In this document: positions 31,795 through 41,187 of the stretch, one piece after another
Layout: each line of letters starts with the position of its first letter
Position numbering within the stretch: position 1 is the stretch's first letter
Assembly: GCA_028688055.1 (NCBI GenBank)
Contig: JAQTYZ010000003.1
Location: 66,752 to 130,751, forward strand
Source: Patescibacteria group bacterium
GTDB taxonomy: Bacteria > Patescibacteriota > Patescibacteriia > Buchananbacterales > UBA6539
Direction of reading: 5' to 3'
Length of the DNA: 64,000 nucleotides
The notes under the pieces: model-generated
Databases searched by the model: none
Told to the model about the DNA's origin: nothing
The model's input: only the letters and a program-made list of their open reading frames with translations
Translations under genes and position numbers: made by a program

Positions 31795-31806
31795 GGAGAG
31801 TTAAGC

Positions 31807-31878
31807 TCCGAGGTAGCTCAACGGTAGAGCAGTGGACTGTTAATCCATTGGTTCCGGGTTCGAATCCCGGCCTCGGAG
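31807..31878 (+). tRNA. tRNA-Asn (anticodon GTT), intronless
   Basis: U1:A72 and G73 as in bacterial tRNA-Asn; D-loop AACGGTA, anticodon loop CUGUUAA, T-loop TTCGAAT; 72 nt. Confidence 0.8.
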
Positions 31879-32103
31879 GAGGCTGGACGCGTTCCCGGAG
31901 ACCGGTTTGAGGCAGTCAACTTAGCCAAAAATAGTAGTCGTCAGTTTGTGTCCAATCCTAGGTGAGAAATCAGTTTAGAACCAGATAGCAAATTAGAGTC
32001 CAGTGATTAGGTAATACATAAGTGTTCTCGGCGACTGGCTCCGCCGATCAAAGGCTTGAAAATTTAAAACTGAATATTTATACTTCAAAAAAGAGTCATG
32101 TGC

Positions 32104-32460: not shown

Positions 32461-33750
32461 TTATTTTACTAGAGAGACCTTTTGGTTTTTAAGATAGAGT
32501 TCAGTTTTTAAACAAGCCAATATCTCCCGCTTCTCATCGCGAGTTCCTTCGGCTAGTAAGTATTTAACGTATTCCTTGATGTCCACTTCGGACATTTTTA
32601 TTTCATCTCGGTTATTACCCTTGGAAATTAGCGTATTAAATTTTTGGTAACGCTCCATTTCCTGCTGCATTTTTTTCAGCGTACCCAACTTATCCAGTTC
32701 AATCTGATCAATTATTTTGAGCAACTCCTCGATTAATGTTTCTTCTCTGACGTACGCTTCTTTGCAATTGTAATCTTTGAATCGGTTACAGTGGTAGTAG
32801 ACGTAGCGTTTTATTGAACCATCATGTTTGATCTTTTTGAATTTATCTTCGGCTGTGACCCCTGATCCGCATGAACCACACTTAATCATGTTGGCGAAGT
32901 CAAATTCTTTGGTACCAGGTTTTAATTTCGGTGCTACCTCGAGATGTATCTTGACTTCGTTAAATAGATCTTTACTGATTAATGCCTGATGCGAACCTTT
33001 GTAGAATATTCCTGAACCCACCGGATACTCAAACTCGCCGTAATAGAAATGATTTTTGAGCATATTGTAAATACTACTCAATGCTATTTTCTTTCCGCTC
33101 CTCGTCCTAAATCCGATTTCATTCATCCATCGCTTGAGTGCCCGACCACTGTATCCTTGGTAGGCAACCTTTTCAAACATTTGAGTGATTACCGGCGCTC
33201 GCTTTGGATCAAGATATACTTTCCGCTGACCCTTCGTTTCGCCAATTCCGTGGAGGTAACCAATCGGAGGATAGCCTGGTCGCCAGCCCTGTTCACATTT
33301 GGCGCGAAGCCCTCGTTTAACATTCACTCCCTTGGCATCGTTTTCTAGTTTGGCAGTACTACCTAGGATCATCAACAAGAATTTTTCGTTCGGTGAATTA
33401 CCAAAGGTTTGTCCGTAGGTTTTTATCTGCTTCAAGATTCCCTGATCCATAAAATCAATGAGCTTGCCAAGGTCACCGGCGTTTCTGCTCAACCTATCAG
33501 GTGCCCAAGTTAAAATGGCGTTGTATTTTTCAGTTCGCAATGCCTCAACCATTTTATTAAATACCGGTCGTTTACCCGAATCTTTAGCTGAATGAGACTC
33601 CTCAAATGTCTCAAGGATTTCAATATTTTCTCGTTTGGCCACTACCGCCATTTCTTTATTCTGTGTTGGGATAGAAAGCTGTTGGAGTTCGTCAGACTCC
33701 GTGCTTTTCCGGCTATAGAGGCAATACCTCAAATTTTGTTCTAAGTCCAT
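32461..33750 (-). CDS. Large serine recombinase (resolvase-domain integrase)
   Basis: YSRKSTESDELQ catalytic Ser motif, DRLSRN, recombinase domain, zinc ribbon CGSCGS...YYHC, coiled-coil tail; adjacent to tRNA genes. Confidence 0.85.
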   Translation of the reverse strand: MDLEQNLRYCLYSRKSTESDELQQLSIPTQNKEMAVVAKRENIEILETFEESHSAKDSGKRPVFNKMVEALRTEKYNAILTWAPDRLSRNAGDLGKLIDFMDQGILKQIKTYGQTFGNSPNEKFLLMILGSTAKLENDAKGVNVKRGLRAKCEQGWRPGYPPIGYLHGIGETKGQRKVYLDPKRAPVITQMFEKVAYQGYSGRALKRWMNEIGFRTRSGKKIALSSIYNMLKNHFYYGEFEYPVGSGIFYKGSHQALISKDLFNEVKIHLEVAPKLKPGTKEFDFANMIKCGSCGSGVTAEDKFKKIKHDGSIKRYVYYHCNRFKDYNCKEAYVREETLIEELLKIIDQIELDKLGTLKKMQQEMERYQKFNTLISKGNNRDEIKMSEVDIKEYVKYLLAEGTRDEKREILACLKTELYLKNQKVSLVK

Positions 33751-34035: not shown

Positions 34036-34950
34036 GTGGCATTATTTAAAATAATCGGCTCAACCGTAAAAAAAATCACCGCAAAAGAGCTTGACTTGGA
34101 GAAAAACCTGCAGACGCTTTTTGAAAATAATCTGGAGGAGTTATTGAACATTTTTTTTCTATCTCATGAGCATTCAACTGGCTTCGGTGGTAGAATTGAC
34201 ACACTCGGCATAGACAAGGATGGTGCGCCCTGCATTATTGAATACAAAAAAAATCAGAACAACAATGTTATCAATCAGGGACTTGCTTACCTTTATTGGC
34301 TGTTAGATCACAAAGCCGATTTTGAGAAAATTTGTCGGAATAATAAAATTGGTATCGAAATCGATTGGGATTCTCCCCGAGTTATTTGCGTAGCTGAAAG
34401 ATACAACAATTTTGATCTGGATACGGTCAACGTTTTGCCGATTAATGTTGAGCTTTGGCGCTACCGTATTTACGACGAAAATATTCTCTTTTTAGAGCCG
34501 GAGAATTTCCAGAAAGTTCGAATATCTACGGCCAGTATTATGCGGAAGACGAAGTATGATAGGGAAAAGCAGGAAATTATCCAAAAAAATTATTCGGTGG
34601 GAGAGCATCTTGCAAAAGCAGGTGAAGACATTAAATCGCTGTTTTTGAAGTTGCGCGAGAAAATAATCTCACTCGACACCGAGATTAAAGAAGATCCACA
34701 AAAAAACTACGTGGCTTATAAGTTATCAACGAATTTTGCGGACGTGGAAATCTACCGCAATCAACTTAAAATTTTCCTGAATGTAAAAAGCGGCCAGCTT
34801 AATAATCCTGATTCCATTGCCCGTGATATGGAAAATCCAAGGCACATCGGTCACCACGGCAATGGCGACTATGAATTAAAGCTGGAAAGCGATGAAGATA
34901 TGGATAAGGTGTTTTCACTTATCAAGCAAAGCTACGATCTGAATAAATAA
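34036..34950 (+). CDS. PD-(D/E)xK nuclease-superfamily protein (NucS/DUF91-like core), candidate restriction endonuclease (GTG start)
   Basis: GRIDTLGIDKDGAPCIIEYKK (D...ExK); directly upstream of an EcoRI-family MTase. Confidence 0.45.
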   Translation: MALFKIIGSTVKKITAKELDLEKNLQTLFENNLEELLNIFFLSHEHSTGFGGRIDTLGIDKDGAPCIIEYKKNQNNNVINQGLAYLYWLLDHKADFEKICRNNKIGIEIDWDSPRVICVAERYNNFDLDTVNVLPINVELWRYRIYDENILFLEPENFQKVRISTASIMRKTKYDREKQEIIQKNYSVGEHLAKAGEDIKSLFLKLREKIISLDTEIKEDPQKNYVAYKLSTNFADVEIYRNQLKIFLNVKSGQLNNPDSIARDMENPRHIGHHGNGDYELKLESDEDMDKVFSLIKQSYDLNK

Positions 34951-34954
34951 TATT

Positions 34955-36025
34955 ATGAGTACTCGATCACTAAATAGAAGTCTTCATAAGGCAAGCCAGG
35001 CAAAAAATGATGAGTTTTATACTCAGCTTGGCGATATTGCTAATGAGCTCCGGCATTACCGAGACCAGCTTAGCGGCAAGGTGATTCTTTGTAATTGCGA
35101 TGATCCATTTGAGAGCAACTTTTTCAAATATTTTGCAGCTAATTTCAACACGCTTGGGCTCAAGAAGCTCATCGCCACTAGTTATCAGAAGTCGCCGATT
35201 GTCGGCGGACAACTATCGCTTCTTGATATTGAAGGGCTCAAGCCGGAAGGGAGAGAACCGTATGTGGTGGAGATCAACGAAGTGCCGGATATGAATAGCG
35301 ACGGAGCGATAAGTTTGGATGATGTAGAGCATCTGCTTAAGCACAATAAAAATATCGCGATGCCGCTTAAAGGTGGCGGTGATTTTCGAAGTAAAGAATG
35401 TATTGAGCTTCTTAAAAAAGCCGATATTGTCGTCACCAATCCACCGTTCTCGCTCTTTCGGGAATATGTCGCACAGTTAATTGAGCATAACAAAAAATTT
35501 CTTATAATCGGCAGCAAAAACGCTATCACATACAAGGAAATTTTTAAGCTCATAAAAGAAAACAAATTGTGGCTTGGATATGGCTTTGCGGCCGGAAACG
35601 CATTTTTCAAAATTCCGGCAGAGAAAGCGCGCGAATTTGCGGCTGGTGTATATGATTCAAAAACTGGCCTTGTAAAGTTTCGTAATGTTGGATGGTTCAC
35701 CAACCTTTATGTTGATAAATCCGAAGATCCGATCACGCCCTATCTCACCTATGAGCAGGGACGCAAGAAAGGGCTTTATCCGAAATATGACAACTATGAC
35801 GCTATTGAAGTTTCGAAAGTCGCAGAAATTCCAAGTGATTACAAAGGCGTTATGGGCGTGCCTATAACGTTCTTAGACAAATGGGCACCCGAAAGCGGCA
35901 TAGAGATAGTCAAATTCAGAAAAGGCGATGATGATAAAGACCTAGCGTTTACGAGAGAGAGAGAGAGAGTACAACCGTACTTCAGAATACTCATTCGCTA
36001 TCGTCGGGCAAACAGGAGTCATTGA
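34955..36025 (+). CDS. EcoRI-family N6-adenine DNA methyltransferase
   Basis: N-terminal LHKA..NDEFYTQ and ILCNCDDPFESNFFKYFAANF are characteristic of the M.EcoRI family (from memory of the family); NPPF motif IV; (GA)8 tract 57 nt before the stop. Confidence 0.65.
   Translation: MSTRSLNRSLHKASQAKNDEFYTQLGDIANELRHYRDQLSGKVILCNCDDPFESNFFKYFAANFNTLGLKKLIATSYQKSPIVGGQLSLLDIEGLKPEGREPYVVEINEVPDMNSDGAISLDDVEHLLKHNKNIAMPLKGGGDFRSKECIELLKKADIVVTNPPFSLFREYVAQLIEHNKKFLIIGSKNAITYKEIFKLIKENKLWLGYGFAAGNAFFKIPAEKAREFAAGVYDSKTGLVKFRNVGWFTNLYVDKSEDPITPYLTYEQGRKKGLYPKYDNYDAIEVSKVAEIPSDYKGVMGVPITFLDKWAPESGIEIVKFRKGDDDKDLAFTRERERVQPYFRILIRYRRANRSH
35953..35969 (+). repeat. (GA)8 microsatellite inside the MTase 3' coding region
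   Basis: CGAGAGAGAGAGAGAGAGTAC; a +/-2 nt change switches to an alternative, longer C-terminus. Confidence 0.9.
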
Positions 36026-36229
36026 GCCAGATGGAATCTGTATTGAGTACAAGGCGGGCAGGCCGTACATTAAGGGACAAAGGAAGTATGCGAGATTATT
36101 TATTAAGCAAAAACAAATTTGAAATCCTTGGCATCGCAAACTCTGCGCGATGGATAGGATACAAATTATATACGATTATAGATGGCCGAAAAATTTACAA
36201 TAGGATTATAATTAGACGAAGATAATAAT

Positions 36230-37327
36230 ATGAATATAGAACTCAAAAATATCAAAATACGCGACGTAGTGAAGGGCTACAAAGACAGTGGCGAGAGCGG
36301 CGTGGTTGGTTACGGCGGCAAACTAAACATTCGTCCGGCGTTTCAGCGCGAGTTTATTTACGGCCAGAAAGAGCGCGACGCTGTTATAAGGACAGTACGG
36401 TCTAGCTTCCCGCTCAACACAATGTATTGGTCGGTGGACAGAGACGGCGGCTTTGAACTCATGGATGGACAACAGCGCACCATTTCTATTTGCCAATATG
36501 TCACCGAGATTATCCCAATAAAGTTTGATGACGGCTACGAACTGGCATTTAACAATTTGACCACCGATCAGCAAGAGAAGATTTTGAATTATGACCTCTC
36601 CGTCTATATCTGCGAAGGAACGGAAAGCGAAAAACTTGCATGGTTTCGGACGATCAATATCGCAGGCAAGCCATTAACCGATCAGGAACTCTTAAACGCC
36701 ATGCACACTGGGCCGTGGCTTGCCGATGCCAAACGCTGGTTTAGCAAGACAGGCGGACCGGCGTATCAGATTGGCGAAAATTATGTAAACGGCTCGCCGA
36801 TTCGCCAAGATTATCTGGAAAAGGCGCTTGACTGGATTTCGGATGGAAAGATTGAGAATTATATGAGCCGCCACCAGCAAGACAAAGACGCGCAGGAATT
36901 GTGGCAGTATTTTCAAGAAGTCGTAGCATGGGTTGAGCGCGTATTCCCCGAGTATCGAAAAATTATGAAGGGCTTAGAATGGGGGCGATTTTACAATGAG
37001 CACAAGGGCGATAAATTAAATGCGGCAAGCTTGGAAAAACGAATTGCGGGATTGATTGAAGATGACGAAGTAGATAATAAGAAAGGTATTTATGAATATC
37101 TTTTGACCGGAAACGAGAAGACGCTCAATCTGCGCGCCTTTGATGAAAAGACGAAAGTTAAACAGTACGAGAAACAGAAAGGAATTTGCCCGACATGTAA
37201 GAAACATTTTGAAATTGATGAAATGGAAGCTGATCACATTGTTCCATGGAATCAAGGTGGAAAAACAATGGAGAAAAATTGCCAGATGCTGTGCAAACAG
37301 GACAATAGGACTAAGTCTGGGAAATAA
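36230..37327 (+). CDS. DUF262 (ParB-like NTPase) - HNH nuclease fusion, GmrSD-like type IV restriction candidate
   Basis: RPAFQREFIY and DGQQRTISI (DUF262 signatures); C-terminal HNH DHIVPWNQGG...C..C..DN. Confidence 0.7.
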   Translation: MNIELKNIKIRDVVKGYKDSGESGVVGYGGKLNIRPAFQREFIYGQKERDAVIRTVRSSFPLNTMYWSVDRDGGFELMDGQQRTISICQYVTEIIPIKFDDGYELAFNNLTTDQQEKILNYDLSVYICEGTESEKLAWFRTINIAGKPLTDQELLNAMHTGPWLADAKRWFSKTGGPAYQIGENYVNGSPIRQDYLEKALDWISDGKIENYMSRHQQDKDAQELWQYFQEVVAWVERVFPEYRKIMKGLEWGRFYNEHKGDKLNAASLEKRIAGLIEDDEVDNKKGIYEYLLTGNEKTLNLRAFDEKTKVKQYEKQKGICPTCKKHFEIDEMEADHIVPWNQGGKTMEKNCQMLCKQDNRTKSGK

Positions 37328-37330
37328 AAA

Positions 37331-38698
37331 ATGAGTATGAACATGGAAAATTCAAAATGGAAAAAGAAAGATATCGCTATTAAAGACCTTTTGCTGTGGG
37401 ATGAAAACGCGCGTTTTTCTGATCAGTATTTTGACCTCTCGGAAGAAGACCTGTTGAAACATTTCTTAATAAGTAAATTTCAGCTACTTAAACTTGCTGG
37501 CGAGATGGAAAAAGATGCCGACCTTCCTCAGTTGGAAAAAATTGTTGTCTGGCGTTCCAATGATCGTAATATAATTCTTGAGGGCAATAGACGAATCGCC
37601 GCATATAAATTACTGGCAAATCCGAAATTGGCCGGTGTTCAAGAAAGTAAATTTTCAAAAATTGGGTCAAAGGTTGGGATTTCCGAAGACTTCGAAGTTG
37701 AATGTCTTGTCACTGAAGATTTGGAACAAGGTTACCGATTTATCGAGAGAAAGCACCTTAATCAAAACAACGAAGTTTCTTGGGGTTCAAATGAGATCGC
37801 CCATCATAAAGATCGCCGAGGAAAGGCCGGTGAAAAAGAACTAATAAGAGTCGGTATTACGAAAGTTGTTAATGACCTCGAAATGGCAAACGAGTTAAAG
37901 GAAGCCGTCTTGGGACCGGGATATGTAACTACTTTTTGGAGACTGACCGGACAAACACCCGCCCAGCAGTATTTTGGCTTCTCTTTCGGTGATGATAAAA
38001 AGTTGAAAATAAAAGATGGTGACTTCGATAAAAAACTGAAAGTTATTGTCTGGGATGTACTCAAAAACGGCCAGTATAAGGGAAAGTTGTTTTCTCGTTT
38101 AAATAATGCGGAAATATCGGATTATTTGAAAAATATTTCTGATAAAGATTACAATCGAGCATCGCAAGAGATAGAAGAGGCAGAAAACAATAAACAGAGT
38201 GATCTTTTCGGGAAAGCGAGCGTTGCTACGAACTACAATTTTAGGATACGAAAAACTCCGGTTACTAAAACTGGAAACGACCTTTTCGGCAGGACTTTAG
38301 CTTTACAGTCCGGCCATGTAAATGATTTATATCGCGCCCTTGCAGATATTGATAAAAAAAATCAAGGTAACGATGCGGTTTTGCCGTTTTTGGGTATGGC
38401 CCTGCGTCTTTTAGTAGAAGTTGCCGCTCGCGTGCATTATGACAATAATGGCGACAAAGAAAAAGCTAAAAAGGATCAAATTTGCGAGATATTTTTGAAA
38501 GAAGCGAAGAAGAAACTAAATCAGCATCGAAAAAATGATATTTCCCTTACTAATGATTGGCTTTCAGATAAAAGAAATCTTAGTGCTATTTTGGACAAGT
38601 ATGCTCATGGCCAAATTGTTTGTAAACGTGCCGATGTATTAAAAGATTCATACATTGTCGCTGATATTTTAGATTTCTACTTCGAAAAGAAGTCTTAA
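37331..38698 (+). CDS. ParB-like nuclease-domain protein, function unknown
   Basis: LLLWDENARF and ILEGNRRIAAYKLL resemble the ParB/Srx N-terminal domain. Confidence 0.45.
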   Translation: MSMNMENSKWKKKDIAIKDLLLWDENARFSDQYFDLSEEDLLKHFLISKFQLLKLAGEMEKDADLPQLEKIVVWRSNDRNIILEGNRRIAAYKLLANPKLAGVQESKFSKIGSKVGISEDFEVECLVTEDLEQGYRFIERKHLNQNNEVSWGSNEIAHHKDRRGKAGEKELIRVGITKVVNDLEMANELKEAVLGPGYVTTFWRLTGQTPAQQYFGFSFGDDKKLKIKDGDFDKKLKVIVWDVLKNGQYKGKLFSRLNNAEISDYLKNISDKDYNRASQEIEEAENNKQSDLFGKASVATNYNFRIRKTPVTKTGNDLFGRTLALQSGHVNDLYRALADIDKKNQGNDAVLPFLGMALRLLVEVAARVHYDNNGDKEKAKKDQICEIFLKEAKKKLNQHRKNDISLTNDWLSDKRNLSAILDKYAHGQIVCKRADVLKDSYIVADILDFYFEKKS

Positions 38699-38703
38699 TT
38701 TAT

Positions 38704-39552
38704 ATGCAAAAGATACCACGAAAAAGAAACCAAAAATTACACTGTAGCCCGTTAAGATATCCCGGAGGGAAGACTTTTTTATTTCCTTTCTTTGATAATG
38801 TCATAAAGGATAACGGATTGGAAAAGGTTACCTATGTCGAACCGTTCGCCGGTGGTGCCGGTGCGGCACTGGTTTTGCTACTATCCGGGAAAGTTGATCG
38901 CATTGTGATTAATGACTTGGATAAAGCTATCTATGCTTTTTGGAAATCGTCTATATTTAATCCCGACAAATTTATAAAAAAGATAAAATCAACCCCGGTA
39001 ACCATTAATGAATGGAAAAAGCAAAAGGCGATTTATAATAACCCGAAGGCTAGTCTCTTTGATCTCGGTTTTGCCACTTTTTTTCTCAATAGAACTAATA
39101 CGTCCGGCATTTTGGACGGCGGACCTATTGGAGGATTAAGACAAAAAGGTAAATACAAAATCGATGCCAGATTTAACAAGGACACTTTGATAGAACGAAT
39201 ACAGCGGATAGCCACACATAAAAAGAAAATATCAGTTTTTAATAAGGACGGACTTAGGTTGATTGGTGAGTATTTAAATAAAAAGAATACATTTATATAT
39301 CTTGACCCACCTTATTTTGAAAAAGGCGCAACACTTTATCTAAACCACTATAAAAAAGAAAATCACGAGGCTCTGGCTAAAAAGCTAAACGATAACCCTG
39401 ATGCCTTTTGGCTGTTAACGTATGATAACAAAAAAGAAATTAAGTCACTTTATTCGAACAGACATATCATCAACTTTTCGCTGAATTACAATGCCTACAA
39501 ATCCCGCAATGGTAGAGAAGTTATGATTATGTCAGATGCGCTCATAAGGTAA
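38704..39552 (+). CDS. Dam-family (D12 class) N6-adenine DNA methyltransferase
   Basis: LRYPGGKTFL SAM-binding N-terminus, DPPY catalytic motif (YLDPPYF). Confidence 0.8.
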   Translation: MQKIPRKRNQKLHCSPLRYPGGKTFLFPFFDNVIKDNGLEKVTYVEPFAGGAGAALVLLLSGKVDRIVINDLDKAIYAFWKSSIFNPDKFIKKIKSTPVTINEWKKQKAIYNNPKASLFDLGFATFFLNRTNTSGILDGGPIGGLRQKGKYKIDARFNKDTLIERIQRIATHKKKISVFNKDGLRLIGEYLNKKNTFIYLDPPYFEKGATLYLNHYKKENHEALAKKLNDNPDAFWLLTYDNKKEIKSLYSNRHIINFSLNYNAYKSRNGREVMIMSDALIR

Positions 39553-39719: not shown

Positions 39720-40685
39720 ATGATGTGTACTTTGACGGGAGTTTCCGACCTTGACGAGTTGTCTCATGCCCATTGGAAGGCGTTAGCCAACAAATGCGGC
39801 GGTCTGGAAAATGTTATTGCCGTCCTGCAAGGAGAGCAAGAGATTACCCTCCGGGAAATCATCAAGCTCCTCATTGACCGGAACGGTCGTGGCATCCCCG
39901 ACAAGTCGGTGGTGAAGTCGAATGTGTGCGACGCAAACCGCGCATACTACTTTGACCGCCTGCCGGACGATTACGACTTTGCCGCCATGCTGTCATTGTG
40001 GCAGGAGCGCTTCAAGCAGAATCCGGGCATGGATGCCAAGGAATTCCGCGAGCGTATCGCTGGCATCCGGGGAATGATTGCGGCTAACCGCCAGATCAGA
40101 AATCTGGACACACCAAACGCCGCGCCGTGGTTCCCGCTTATCCTGCCGCAGATTCCGTTGCAAAAGCCCGAAGGCGACGAAGCAGTCGAGGCCAAACAAA
40201 TGGACTACGGCACATTGCTCGAAGACACCTTGTTGCCCGCCGTCGAGGCGAGTTACATTGCGGCCTACCCCCAGCGGCAGTTTATCAACTACCGCAAGGG
40301 TGAGCTGTCAGGACAGGTGACGATCGTCGAGGAACGTCACGCCAAGCTCTACCAAGACTTGGCCAACGGTCCGATTATCGGGATTTTGTTCCCGACAGCG
40401 TTGCACGGCTTCAGCCCGTTTGCCCAGCGCGAGATGATCACCCTTATGCCAGAGCACTGCTCACTTGAGGGACCGATGGACATGGGTGTCGCCGAAACGC
40501 TGTACACACGGCAACTGTCGCGTGACAACAACACGCCCGTGAAAGACTGCTCTGCAGTCCAATGGCGGGACCCCGAGTACTCGCTGTACTTCAACGCCGA
40601 CGACGACGAGCTCGGGTTCGACTACGGGGACGACCTCGGCCTTGCGTACGGCGGCTCTGCGGGTGGGGTGTTCTTCCGCGGGTAG
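39720..40685 (+). CDS. DGR target (variable) protein; the C-terminal 40 codons form the variable repeat
   Basis: GC-rich ORF whose 3' 120 nt (40563-40682) is an A-mismatch-only copy of the TR at 41050; RBS GGAGGA. Confidence 0.75.
   Translation: MMCTLTGVSDLDELSHAHWKALANKCGGLENVIAVLQGEQEITLREIIKLLIDRNGRGIPDKSVVKSNVCDANRAYYFDRLPDDYDFAAMLSLWQERFKQNPGMDAKEFRERIAGIRGMIAANRQIRNLDTPNAAPWFPLILPQIPLQKPEGDEAVEAKQMDYGTLLEDTLLPAVEASYIAAYPQRQFINYRKGELSGQVTIVEERHAKLYQDLANGPIIGILFPTALHGFSPFAQREMITLMPEHCSLEGPMDMGVAETLYTRQLSRDNNTPVKDCSAVQWRDPEYSLYFNADDDELGFDYGDDLGLAYGGSAGGVFFRG
40563..40682 (+). repeat. DGR variable repeat (VR)
   Basis: 120 nt aligned to TR with 16 substitutions, every one at a TR adenine. 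Confidence 0.85.
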
Positions 40686-40756
40686 TGAATTGGTCTTTGA
40701 CCTTTGGTACCTTGATACTTTTGGTGCCTTGGTCAGATCACGCTACTTATTTAATC

Positions 40757-41049: not shown

Positions 41050-41169
41050 TGGCAGGACCCCGAGTACTCGCTGTACTTCAACGCCAACGACGACAAGCTC
41101 AAGTTCGACAACAGGAACAACCTCGGCAATGCGAACGACAACTATGCGGGTGGGGTGTTCTTCCGCGGG
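41050..41169 (+). repeat. DGR template repeat (TR), rich in AAC codons
   Basis: TR-only adenines at all 16 VR/TR differences (AAC to GAC/TAC/GGC etc.); shared GC-rich 3' end GCGGGTGGGGTGTTCTTCCGCGGG (IMH-like). Confidence 0.85.
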
Positions 41170-41187
41170 CAGTGTCTTTACTTCAAG

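Follow-up and report, generated by a model that had tools for sequence, protein, structure and literature searches.

We identified a predicted three-way, repeat-driven switch in a DNA methyltransferase gene that belongs to a compact defence block of a Patescibacteria group bacterium (assembly GCA_028688055.1). The block lies in a 64,000-nucleotide stretch of contig JAQTYZ010000003.1 (positions 66,752 to 130,751), referred to here as the window, and consists of five plus-strand open reading frames (ORFs) packed within window positions 34036-39552. These ORFs, designated A to E, are all present as an earlier note on this DNA had described them, and are separated by 4 nt (A-B), 204 nt (B-C), 3 nt (C-D), and 5 nt (D-E). 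The correct parse of the block is probably [A] [B-C] [D-E], that is, three independently inherited modules that lie end to end beside a serine recombinase, with a GA-repeat switch in B that would never turn the enzyme OFF. The earlier note had seen a stack of restriction and defence modules, and this is confirmed by profile hidden Markov model assignments and by the module borders. Sequence motifs are intact in four of the proteins (D...ExK in A, NPPF in B, DGQQR and HNH in C, FAGGAG and DPPY in E).

A GA repeat predicted to select among three C-termini of an EcoRI-family methyltransferase

Gene B (34955-36025, plus strand, in the frame used here) encodes a 356-aa EcoRI-family N6-adenine DNA methyltransferase (Pfam accession PF13651, EcoRI_methylase, 421.3 bits against a gathering cut-off of 26.4). 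The catalytic motif NPPF is found at residues 162-165 and the N-terminal region that binds S-adenosylmethionine is conserved. Within the gene lies a (GA)8G simple-sequence repeat (SSR; 35953-35969, plus strand), one of only two (GA)n tracts of at least five units in the window. The repeat encodes an (RE)n stretch in the turn of a C-terminal beta-hairpin and is placed to act as a frame selector, as all three frames downstream of it are open and each ends in a complete C-terminal cassette.

Frame a, which is in use here, ends in ...TRERERVQPYFRILIRYRRANRSH. Frame b (35970-36122, plus strand; 50 codons and a stop) ends in cassette b1, ...FAIVGQTGVIEPDGICIEYKAGRPYIKGQRKYARLFIKQKQI, and is read if the tract gains one GA unit or loses two (modulo three units). 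Frame c (35971-36225, plus strand; 84 codons and a stop) passes through an unconstrained linker rich in S, T, K, and E to cassette c1, ...FEILGIANSARWIGYKLYTIIDGRKIYNRIIIRRR, and stops 4 nt before the ATG of gene C. The 204-nt ‘gap’ between B and C is thus not intergenic; it is coding sequence for alternative C-termini of B in the other two frames. A 67-aa ORF at 36022-36225 was considered as a controller (C) protein and rejected, as it has no family matches and is the frame-c tail of B.

Every frame of B ends in the same family signature, F-x-I-x-G followed by a variable loop and Y-x-R-I-x-I. The authentic M.EcoRI, encoded on a plasmid beside an annotated R.EcoRI, ends in FELIKFRKGVDEKDLSINGKCPYFRILIKNK, which corresponds to cassette a, and has an INGK turn at the position where B has (RE)n. 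An AlphaFold2 model of B (predicted local distance difference test score 80) places this region in a terminal beta-hairpin, with strands at residues 316-322 and 344-349 and a disordered loop between them. In the AlphaFold2 model of an isoform-c protein (P0243), a disordered stretch of about 70 residues precedes cassette c, which supplies the terminal strands.

Scans of genomes and, by pattern, of metagenomes, together with contig look-ups, identified 19 loci that contain the tract, about 16 of them distinct (comparison loci carry the prefix L). Tract lengths across these loci are 9, 13, 15, 17, 19, 21, 23, 25, and 31 nt. Frame a is in use in six loci, frame b in four (L008, L033, L038, and L039, as well as many database proteins), and frame c in nine. 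In every one of the 19 loci, all three frames after the tract remain open to a cassette end of the form [YF]xR[ILM]xx[IV]; only about 0.7% of window positions are equally open in all three frames. Clusters of database proteins show all three isoform lengths, some of them with 12-27 member sequences.

The tract is maintained, with varying length, across DNA that is 76-88% identical, and its length also differs between near-identical strains. L006 (23 nt, frame a) and L008 (25 nt, frame b) are one GA unit apart, with flanks identical at 1499 of 1500 positions. L032 and L038 (21 and 19 nt) likewise differ by one unit at 98.5% identity. B therefore has one of the marks of SSR phase variation, a coding-region repeat whose length differs between near-identical strains.

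Purifying selection acts on the cassettes, even on those not read at present. For cassette b1, aligned from nine loci of which only three currently read it, the variable sites are distributed 4/1/24 over codon positions 1/2/3; the corresponding figures for cassette c1 are 7/1/20. Read in frame c, the b1 DNA has amino-acid changes in 22 of its 24 variable codons, which shows that the linker is not constrained. The open frames and the codon-position bias thus identify the alternative frames as maintained, selected sequence, which is a property expected of C-terminal phase variation.

Discrete cassette types can be distinguished (b1-b4, c1-c5, and more); they are freely combined from locus to locus and can even change slot. 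Every cassette type is also found as the sole C-terminus of single-cassette relatives in other phyla, M.EcoRI included. We also observed a second architecture in five proteins (P0260, P0261, P0264, P0268, and P0298) in which (RE)n directly precedes the first cassette and does not lie inside an EcoRI-type loop, as in ...WVPDIAALS-RERERER-WQVLGNLGSY...

Relation to known repeat-driven phase variation

SSR phase variation of restriction-modification (R-M) methylases is well known and includes Type III mod, Type I hsdS and hsdM, and AG repeats in the Mycoplasma methylase M.MmyCI (PMC5909438, PMC7383803, PMC3498834). In ‘C-terminal phase variation’, described in H. canadensis and N. gonorrhoeae, repeats at the 3′ end of a gene switch the C-terminal sequence among three frames (PMC5320596, PMC3498834, PMC5909438, PMC7383803). 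B shares with the first group a hypermutable coding-region repeat that varies in length between close strains and with the second a repeat near the 3′ end that switches the C-terminal sequence among three frames. We thus classify B, from its sequence, as a case of C-terminal phase variation of a Type II methylase.

B also differs from the described examples. The known R-M cases are ON/OFF switches or truncations, whereas each frame of B is predicted to give a complete enzyme, with a homologous cassette that differs from frame to frame. Purifying selection acts on these cassettes, which are also exchanged among loci; the enzyme is of a stand-alone, Type II style, and the hosts are Patescibacteria. 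A full-text literature search found no paper on SSR phase variation in Patescibacteria. We also did not find a choice by repeat length among three conserved C-terminal ends described for the EcoRI methylase family. What appears to be new is therefore the set of three homologous, selected, and shuffled cassettes, the never-OFF design in a stand-alone Type II-style methylase, and the occurrence in Patescibacteria.

The methyltransferase is predicted to be paired with a DUF262-HNH nuclease

Gene C (36230-37327, plus strand) encodes a 365-aa protein with an N-terminal GmrSD_N/DUF262 domain (55.5 bits, cut-off 33.2) and a C-terminal HNH domain (47.5 bits) in Pfam. The DUF262 motif DGQQR is found at residues 79-83, and the HNH residues D335-H336, N350, and N359 are invariant. 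In PADLOC, C is matched from end to end by the ‘REase_II’ model PDLC03418 (E=7e-134). The Pfam scan assigned the C-terminus to HNH (PF01844) and HNH_5 and gave no DUF1524 match. Homologs of C number in the thousands, are 54-96% identical, and occur in Patescibacteria, Acidobacteria, Beta- and Deltaproteobacteria, Bacteroidota, Planctomycetes, Actinobacteria, and Armatimonadetes.

We examined 36 loci that encode a full-length C, about 30 of them distinct and drawn from at least eight phyla. An EcoRI-family methylase gene lies upstream on the same strand in 35 of the 36, usually with a 4-nt overlap; the single exception has only 214 nt of upstream DNA. The B-C pairing is also found on plasmids of Aeromonas, Gordonia, Variovorax, Ligilactobacillus, and others. 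In more than 20 relatives, nucleotide homology to the window starts at 34940-34971 and ends at 37326-37337. These limits coincide with the borders of B and C, which are therefore a discrete 2.4-kb unit.

B and C thus share with Type II R-M systems adjacent, separate, and co-inherited genes for a methyltransferase and a predicted endonuclease, with intact catalytic motifs in both. Sequence and gene order identify B and C as the predicted true R-M pair of the block, a two-gene system. The earlier note had instead paired B with the nuclease-like protein A as a Type II system. This pairing fails, as the partner of B is C in 35 of 36 loci and on plasmids and the relatives of A lie in or beside Type I R-M operons in three of four sampled plasmids. 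In the B-C system, B would mark host DNA by N6-methyladenine (m6A) methylation, and C, with a ParB/Srx-like, probably nucleoside triphosphate (NTP)-binding DUF262 domain and an HNH domain, would cut DNA that lacks the mark. The strict coupling of C to an upstream m6A methyltransferase implies attack on unmodified rather than modified DNA.

B closely resembles the methylase of the EcoRI system. It is 47% identical to M.EcoRI (plasmid pU90-3) over the whole length, including NPPF and the C-terminal cassette, and the two share cassette type a (KFRKG-D-KDL...PYFRILI). The partners differ, as C is a DUF262-HNH protein, whereas R.EcoRI is a PD-(D/E)xK nuclease; the gene order here is methylase then nuclease, and B carries the (GA)n tract and two further cassettes in other frames.

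C in turn resembles GmrSD, BrxU, and SspE in having an N-terminal DUF262 domain with DGQQR followed by a His-Me finger nuclease in one polypeptide. The C-terminal domain of BrxU has also been described as an HNH fold, and DUF262 domains bind NTP in GmrSD and BrxU (PMC12707154). C differs from this group in being short, in carrying HNH PF01844 and not DUF1524, and in being tied to an upstream m6A methyltransferase gene. A GmrSD-type Type IV enzyme would have the N-terminal DUF262/GmrSD_N domain that C has, together with a DUF1524 domain and action without a cognate methyltransferase, which do not fit C. The short GmrSD/SspE-like DUF262-HNH architecture proposed for C in the earlier note is thus borne out, but not as a solitary Type IV-like enzyme, given its coupling to B and its match to the REase_II model.

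One B-C locus shows an insertion between the two genes. In L011 (5400-6000), an ORF of about 200 aa lies between the methylase and nuclease genes and was judged GIY-YIG/T5orf172-like by eye from its translation.

How the switch may work

The slippage-prone (GA)n tract lies in the turn of the last beta-hairpin of B, and each cassette would supply the terminal hairpin strand that the B fold needs. Gain or loss of GA units would swap the variable loop among three versions and would never switch the methylase off. Keeping the methylase ON in every frame would avoid self-restriction, since loss of methylation next to an active nuclease would kill the cell. The most likely role of the loop is to modulate how DNA is recognised or how B interacts with C.

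Several results weigh against this account of B and C. The differences in tract length were seen between assemblies and not inside one population. Over- and under-representation of palindromes in the window gave no hint of a recognition site, and no GAATTC signal was seen. A PDB search found no solved structure of the EcoRI methylase family; a Foldseek search of the B model against the PDB returned weak Rossmann-fold matches, and the cassette could not be placed relative to DNA. PDB sequence searches with B and C likewise returned nothing useful beyond a generic HNH match. Finally, variation in C is evenly spread, with no hypervariable patch and no covariation with cassette type. A model in which the cassette sets specificity and C reads DNA independently is hard to sustain because of this absence of covariation. 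Either the loop is not a determinant of sequence specificity, or C takes its specificity from B as in Type III systems, an option that we consider rather unlikely.

Under such a Type III-like arrangement, C would have no specificity of its own and would be targeted by B, the cassette would serve as the target-recognition element, and GA slippage would retarget methylation and restriction together among three specificities. The pattern of variation in C fits this arrangement, as does the unusual conservation of C across phyla. The cassette loop is the only hypervariable segment of B, discrete cassettes are shuffled between loci and slots in the manner of hsdS and mod target-recognition domains, and the NTP-binding role of DUF262 would parallel the NTPase subunit Res. 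Against it, M.EcoRI also has cassette type a and works with an independent nuclease, R.EcoRI, and PADLOC, whose models are derived from REBASE, files C under Type II. A loop of 25-35 aa is also small for a complete target-recognition domain, and switching would expose unmethylated new sites on the host chromosome. We regard the arrangement as possible but doubtful. That B-C is an unrecognised kind of R-M system, in which an NTPase-HNH nuclease is targeted by an EcoRI-family methylase and a repeat switches methylation and restriction among three specificities, is in our judgement unlikely.

A PD-lambda-5-type pair follows the nuclease gene

Genes D (37331-38698, plus strand, 455 aa) and E (38704-39552, plus strand, 282 aa) match the two proteins of PD-lambda-5. 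D matches the PADLOC profile PD-Lambda-5_A (E=2.4e-27, residues 8-439 against profile positions 4-424 of 440) and is the presumed effector. E matches PD-Lambda-5_B (E=1.3e-113) and is a D12-class N6-adenine methyltransferase (Pfam MethyltransfD12, 73 bits, above threshold) with FAGGAG and DPPY motifs. Both profiles are matched by adjacent genes in the order A then B, as in PD-lambda-5. PD-lambda-5 is an experimentally validated two-gene system with an E. coli prototype (Vassallo et al., 2022; PMC9519451). Its cloning required a host with mrr deleted, and its mechanism has been published only as the remark ‘compacted RM+Abi’ (PMC9519451). By analogy with PD-lambda-5, E would mark self DNA by methylation and D would act as effector.

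These matches alter several assignments made in the earlier note. E had been described as an orphan Dam-type methyltransferase. The D12 class stands; the Dam family assignment does not, as E scores 57.2 bits against the NCBIfam Dam model TIGR00571 (cut-off 114.85), and E is not an orphan but the conserved partner of D. GATC is mildly under-represented in the window (z=-2.0). Two ParB-fold proteins in tandem before a Dam methyltransferase had been called no standard described arrangement, but D and E correspond to the published PD-lambda-5 proteins A and B. Neither is D a plasmid-partition remnant, as it is a PD-lambda-5_A homolog and the conserved partner of a D12 methyltransferase. On plasmids, tblastn gave no match to D.

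A ParB/Srx-like N-terminus of D is possible but unproven. The family alignment contains an invariant EGNRR motif (residues 84-88 of D) that aligns to the ParB G-G-H-x-R box. Weak ‘ParB-like’ PHROG matches were found in 5 of 45 members of the D family (best E=0.001), and one UniRef name is ParB-like. D itself has no Pfam or PDB sequence match, the D-family profile returned nothing useful from the PDB, and a Pfam scan of 45 D homologs gave no ParB match. In hhalign, the D family aligned significantly with neither the DUF262 family nor a ParB_N protein. The domain calls of the earlier note therefore hold for A, B, C, and E, four of the five proteins; for D, the proposed ParB fold is weakly suggested by EGNRR and the weak PHROG matches and is not reflected in Pfam or the PDB.

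Homologs of D are 40-87% identical and are always followed by a near-overlapping D12 methylase gene, and the pair is kept in eight other contexts. The pair occurs without B-C in L029, L030, and L047-L052, and in a P2-like Vibrio phage, where it lies beside an integrase. It follows a Type I hsdR-hsdM-...-hsdS operon in L047 and L048 and a 944-aa MmeI-like (Type IIG) enzyme in L051 and L052. In L049 and L050 it follows a Type III mod gene, with res further downstream, so that the pair lies between mod and res. No R-M gene is adjacent in L029 and L030. PD-lambda-5-type pairs are docked directly behind or inside R-M systems, the B-C pair among them, in six of eight sampled contexts.

The junction between B-C and a PD-lambda-5-type pair recurs in two further loci. 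In L031, B and C are 57% identical to the window genes and D and E are 80-82% identical. In L012, the genes after B (83%) and C (92%) encode first a PD-lambda-5_A protein that tblastn does not connect with D because of its divergence and then an E-like protein (50%). Among B-C loci, D is detectable only in L031 and an E-like gene only in L012 and L031. The co-occurrence of C, D, and E that the earlier note had raised is therefore real in these two loci, but it is not exclusive, as D-E also follows Type I hsdS, Type III mod, or an MmeI-like gene, or stands without R-M genes. Because D-E is found behind such diverse genes, its association is with R-M loci generally and not with DUF262-HNH genes specifically.

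Other genes can occupy the position after C. In L006 (11101-13944; also in L007 and L008), a 947-aa protein is encoded 2 nt after the nuclease gene, in the slot held by D-E in the window, and shows weak PADLOC matches to ATPases of the Ppl, LmuB, and AriA types. As the genes directly after C differ between loci (D-E, the 947-aa ATPase), this position behaves as a docking site for defence genes.

The D-E copy agrees with PD-lambda-5 in its profile matches, gene order, and near-overlap, and in having relatives in a P2-like phage beside an integrase. It differs in being chromosomal, in a Patescibacteria metagenome-assembled genome, in lying 3 nt behind another R-M pair, and in the moderate match of D. 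Taken together, the homology data suggest that D-E is an autonomous PD-lambda-5-type pair that repeatedly docks behind several R-M types.

Gene A as a separate NucS-like module

Gene A (34036-34950, plus strand) encodes a 304-aa protein with a NucS-like PD-(D/E)xK domain, in which the core D55...E69-x-K71 is seen, and a C-terminal DUF5655 domain (Pfam, 52 bits). It matches the PADLOC candidate PDC-S18 over its full length (E=5.9e-96, residues 2-301). The earlier note was right about the D...ExK core and about the position of A directly upstream of the methyltransferase gene (4 nt), but not about its pairing with B.

Plasmid homologs of A, annotated as ‘DUF5655 domain-containing protein’, lie between hsdS and hsdR or beside hsdM. 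Relatives of A are inside or beside Type I R-M operons in three of four sampled plasmids; plasmids of Acinetobacter, Cupriavidus, and Rhizobium (L044, L045, and L046) have A homologs embedded in or next to Type I R-M genes. Among B-C loci, A is represented only by a 49-aa remnant in L012, and a scan of viral contigs found no relatives of A. A shares the NucS-like N-terminus and DUF5655 with its plasmid homologs and differs from them in lying beside a Type II pair and not inside a Type I operon. A is thus most readily read as a separate module, a PADLOC single-gene candidate (PDC-S18) and not the restriction endonuclease of B; it would be a nuclease-fold protein, one of a family with a habitual place in R-M loci.

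NucS-like genes were also seen upstream of B elsewhere. In L005 (307-1447), a helix-turn-helix gene and a 308-aa PDC-S02 protein (E=4e-162, NucS_C-like) lie directly before the methylase gene. Three loci of the repeat-bearing clade have a NucS-like gene in this position (the window, L005, and L012, the last as a remnant).

Three modules beside a serine recombinase

A large serine recombinase gene (32461-33750, minus strand) is divergent from gene A and is likely the mobility gene of the island. It lies 0.6 kb downstream of a tRNA-Asn gene (31806-31879), which forms the upstream context of the block, and 0.3 kb from the five-gene block. The block itself is about 2.2 kb downstream of the tRNA, past the housekeeping genes dnaG and rpoD. 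Recombinases related to the one here also border B-C in L009/L036, L012, L016, and L031. The three modules are probably co-transcribed; scans of the block for promoters and terminators found about as many as expected from shuffled sequence, and none inside the block was convincing. All three are already known or catalogued, as an R-M pair, a validated PD-lambda-5 system, and the database candidate PDC-S18, and the block is otherwise an ordinary defence island.

The independence of the modules must be weighed against the compactness of the block. The spacing of 3-5 nt and three independent junctions between B-C and PD-lambda-5-type genes (the window, L031, and L012) permit cross-talk between modules. 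It is even conceivable that the five genes work together as a single operon whose parts depend on each other, an integrated multi-component defence system. The shared strand, the short gaps, and the lack of a convincing internal promoter or terminator would suit such a system, as would the placement of PD-lambda-5-type pairs 2-3 nt after C in three loci whose modules have diverged to different degrees, and the NucS-like genes before B in the window, L005, and L012. However, each module is found far more often alone than with the others, homology breakpoints coincide with module borders, and other loci have quite different genes in the same slots, such as the 947-aa ATPase after C in L006. We consider a single integrated system improbable.

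The parse of the earlier note, with A and B as a classical Type II pair and C, D, and E as a separate modification-dependent or nicking unit containing two ParB-fold proteins and an orphan Dam methylase, is very improbable. The PD-(D/E)xK core of A and its end 4 nt before B, the GmrSD N-terminal domain of C, and the recurrence of the C-D-E order in L031 and L012 are consistent with it. They are outweighed by the finding that C rather than A is the partner of B on plasmids and in about 30 distinct loci, by the company that relatives of A keep with Type I systems, and by the unproven ParB fold of D. D-E also occurs without C behind Type I, IIG, and III genes, and PD-lambda-5 works as a two-gene system.

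Finally, we reject as hardly credible that the extra cassettes are decaying relics of 3′-end replacements and the frame differences assembly or sequencing errors, with no functional switching: dinucleotide repeats are error-prone and the current annotation shows a 204-nt gap with a small ORF, but three frames are open in 19 of 19 diverged loci, out-of-frame cassettes show a third-position substitution bias, all three isoforms form abundant protein clusters from independent samples, and the tract is kept at varying length across DNA that has otherwise diverged.

The preferred reading thus remains three independently inherited modules, with the switch confined to B. The island extends further, past a diversity-generating retroelement (DGR), to a second NucS-like PD-(D/E)xK protein (43520-44608, 362 aa) that matches PADLOC candidate PDC-S11 (E=1e-13) and is a distant relative of the N-terminus of A.

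A neighbouring diversity-generating retroelement

The DGR reverse transcriptase gene (41564-42669) lies 6 kb away and is split exactly at a (GA)12 tract (42127-42150). As it stands, the reading frame stops after 220 aa, before the YADD motif; a (GA)11 or (GA)14 tract would restore a full reverse transcriptase of 367-369 aa. The gene therefore looks like an ON/OFF phase-variable gene that is currently OFF, and appears to be switched by the same kind of repeat as the B methylase. The scan of viral contigs found no relatives of the reverse transcriptase for comparison of the tract.

The variable repeat of the DGR (VR, 40563-40687) and its template repeat (TR, 41050-41174) are 125 nt long and 86% identical, and 16 of their 17 mismatches are at template adenines, which shows past activity of the DGR. 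The VR makes up the 3′ end of a target gene (39720-40685), in a region with a local GC content of 54%. A LOOT RNA (Rfam accession RF03000, 80 bits, full length) was found at 42771-42888, about 100 nt downstream of the reverse transcriptase gene.

Implications

The pairing of DUF262-HNH nucleases with EcoRI-family methylases is an R-M architecture that is strongly conserved and very widespread and that appears to be uncharacterised. The contrast between a conserved nuclease and a hypervariable methylase cassette raises the question of which protein reads DNA. PD-lambda-5 pairs and DUF5655 proteins appear as riders on several R-M types, a pattern relevant to the assembly of defence islands and possibly to functional coupling between their parts.

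B offers a clean natural example of a hypermutable gene in which every frame would be functional. If the unrecognised kind of R-M outlined above were true, the B-C pair would be a three-state, never-OFF phasevarion and defence switch in Patescibacteria, with specificities drawn from a horizontally shared pool of cassettes. More generally, the GA switch suggests that Patescibacteria may have phase-variable epigenetic or defence states.

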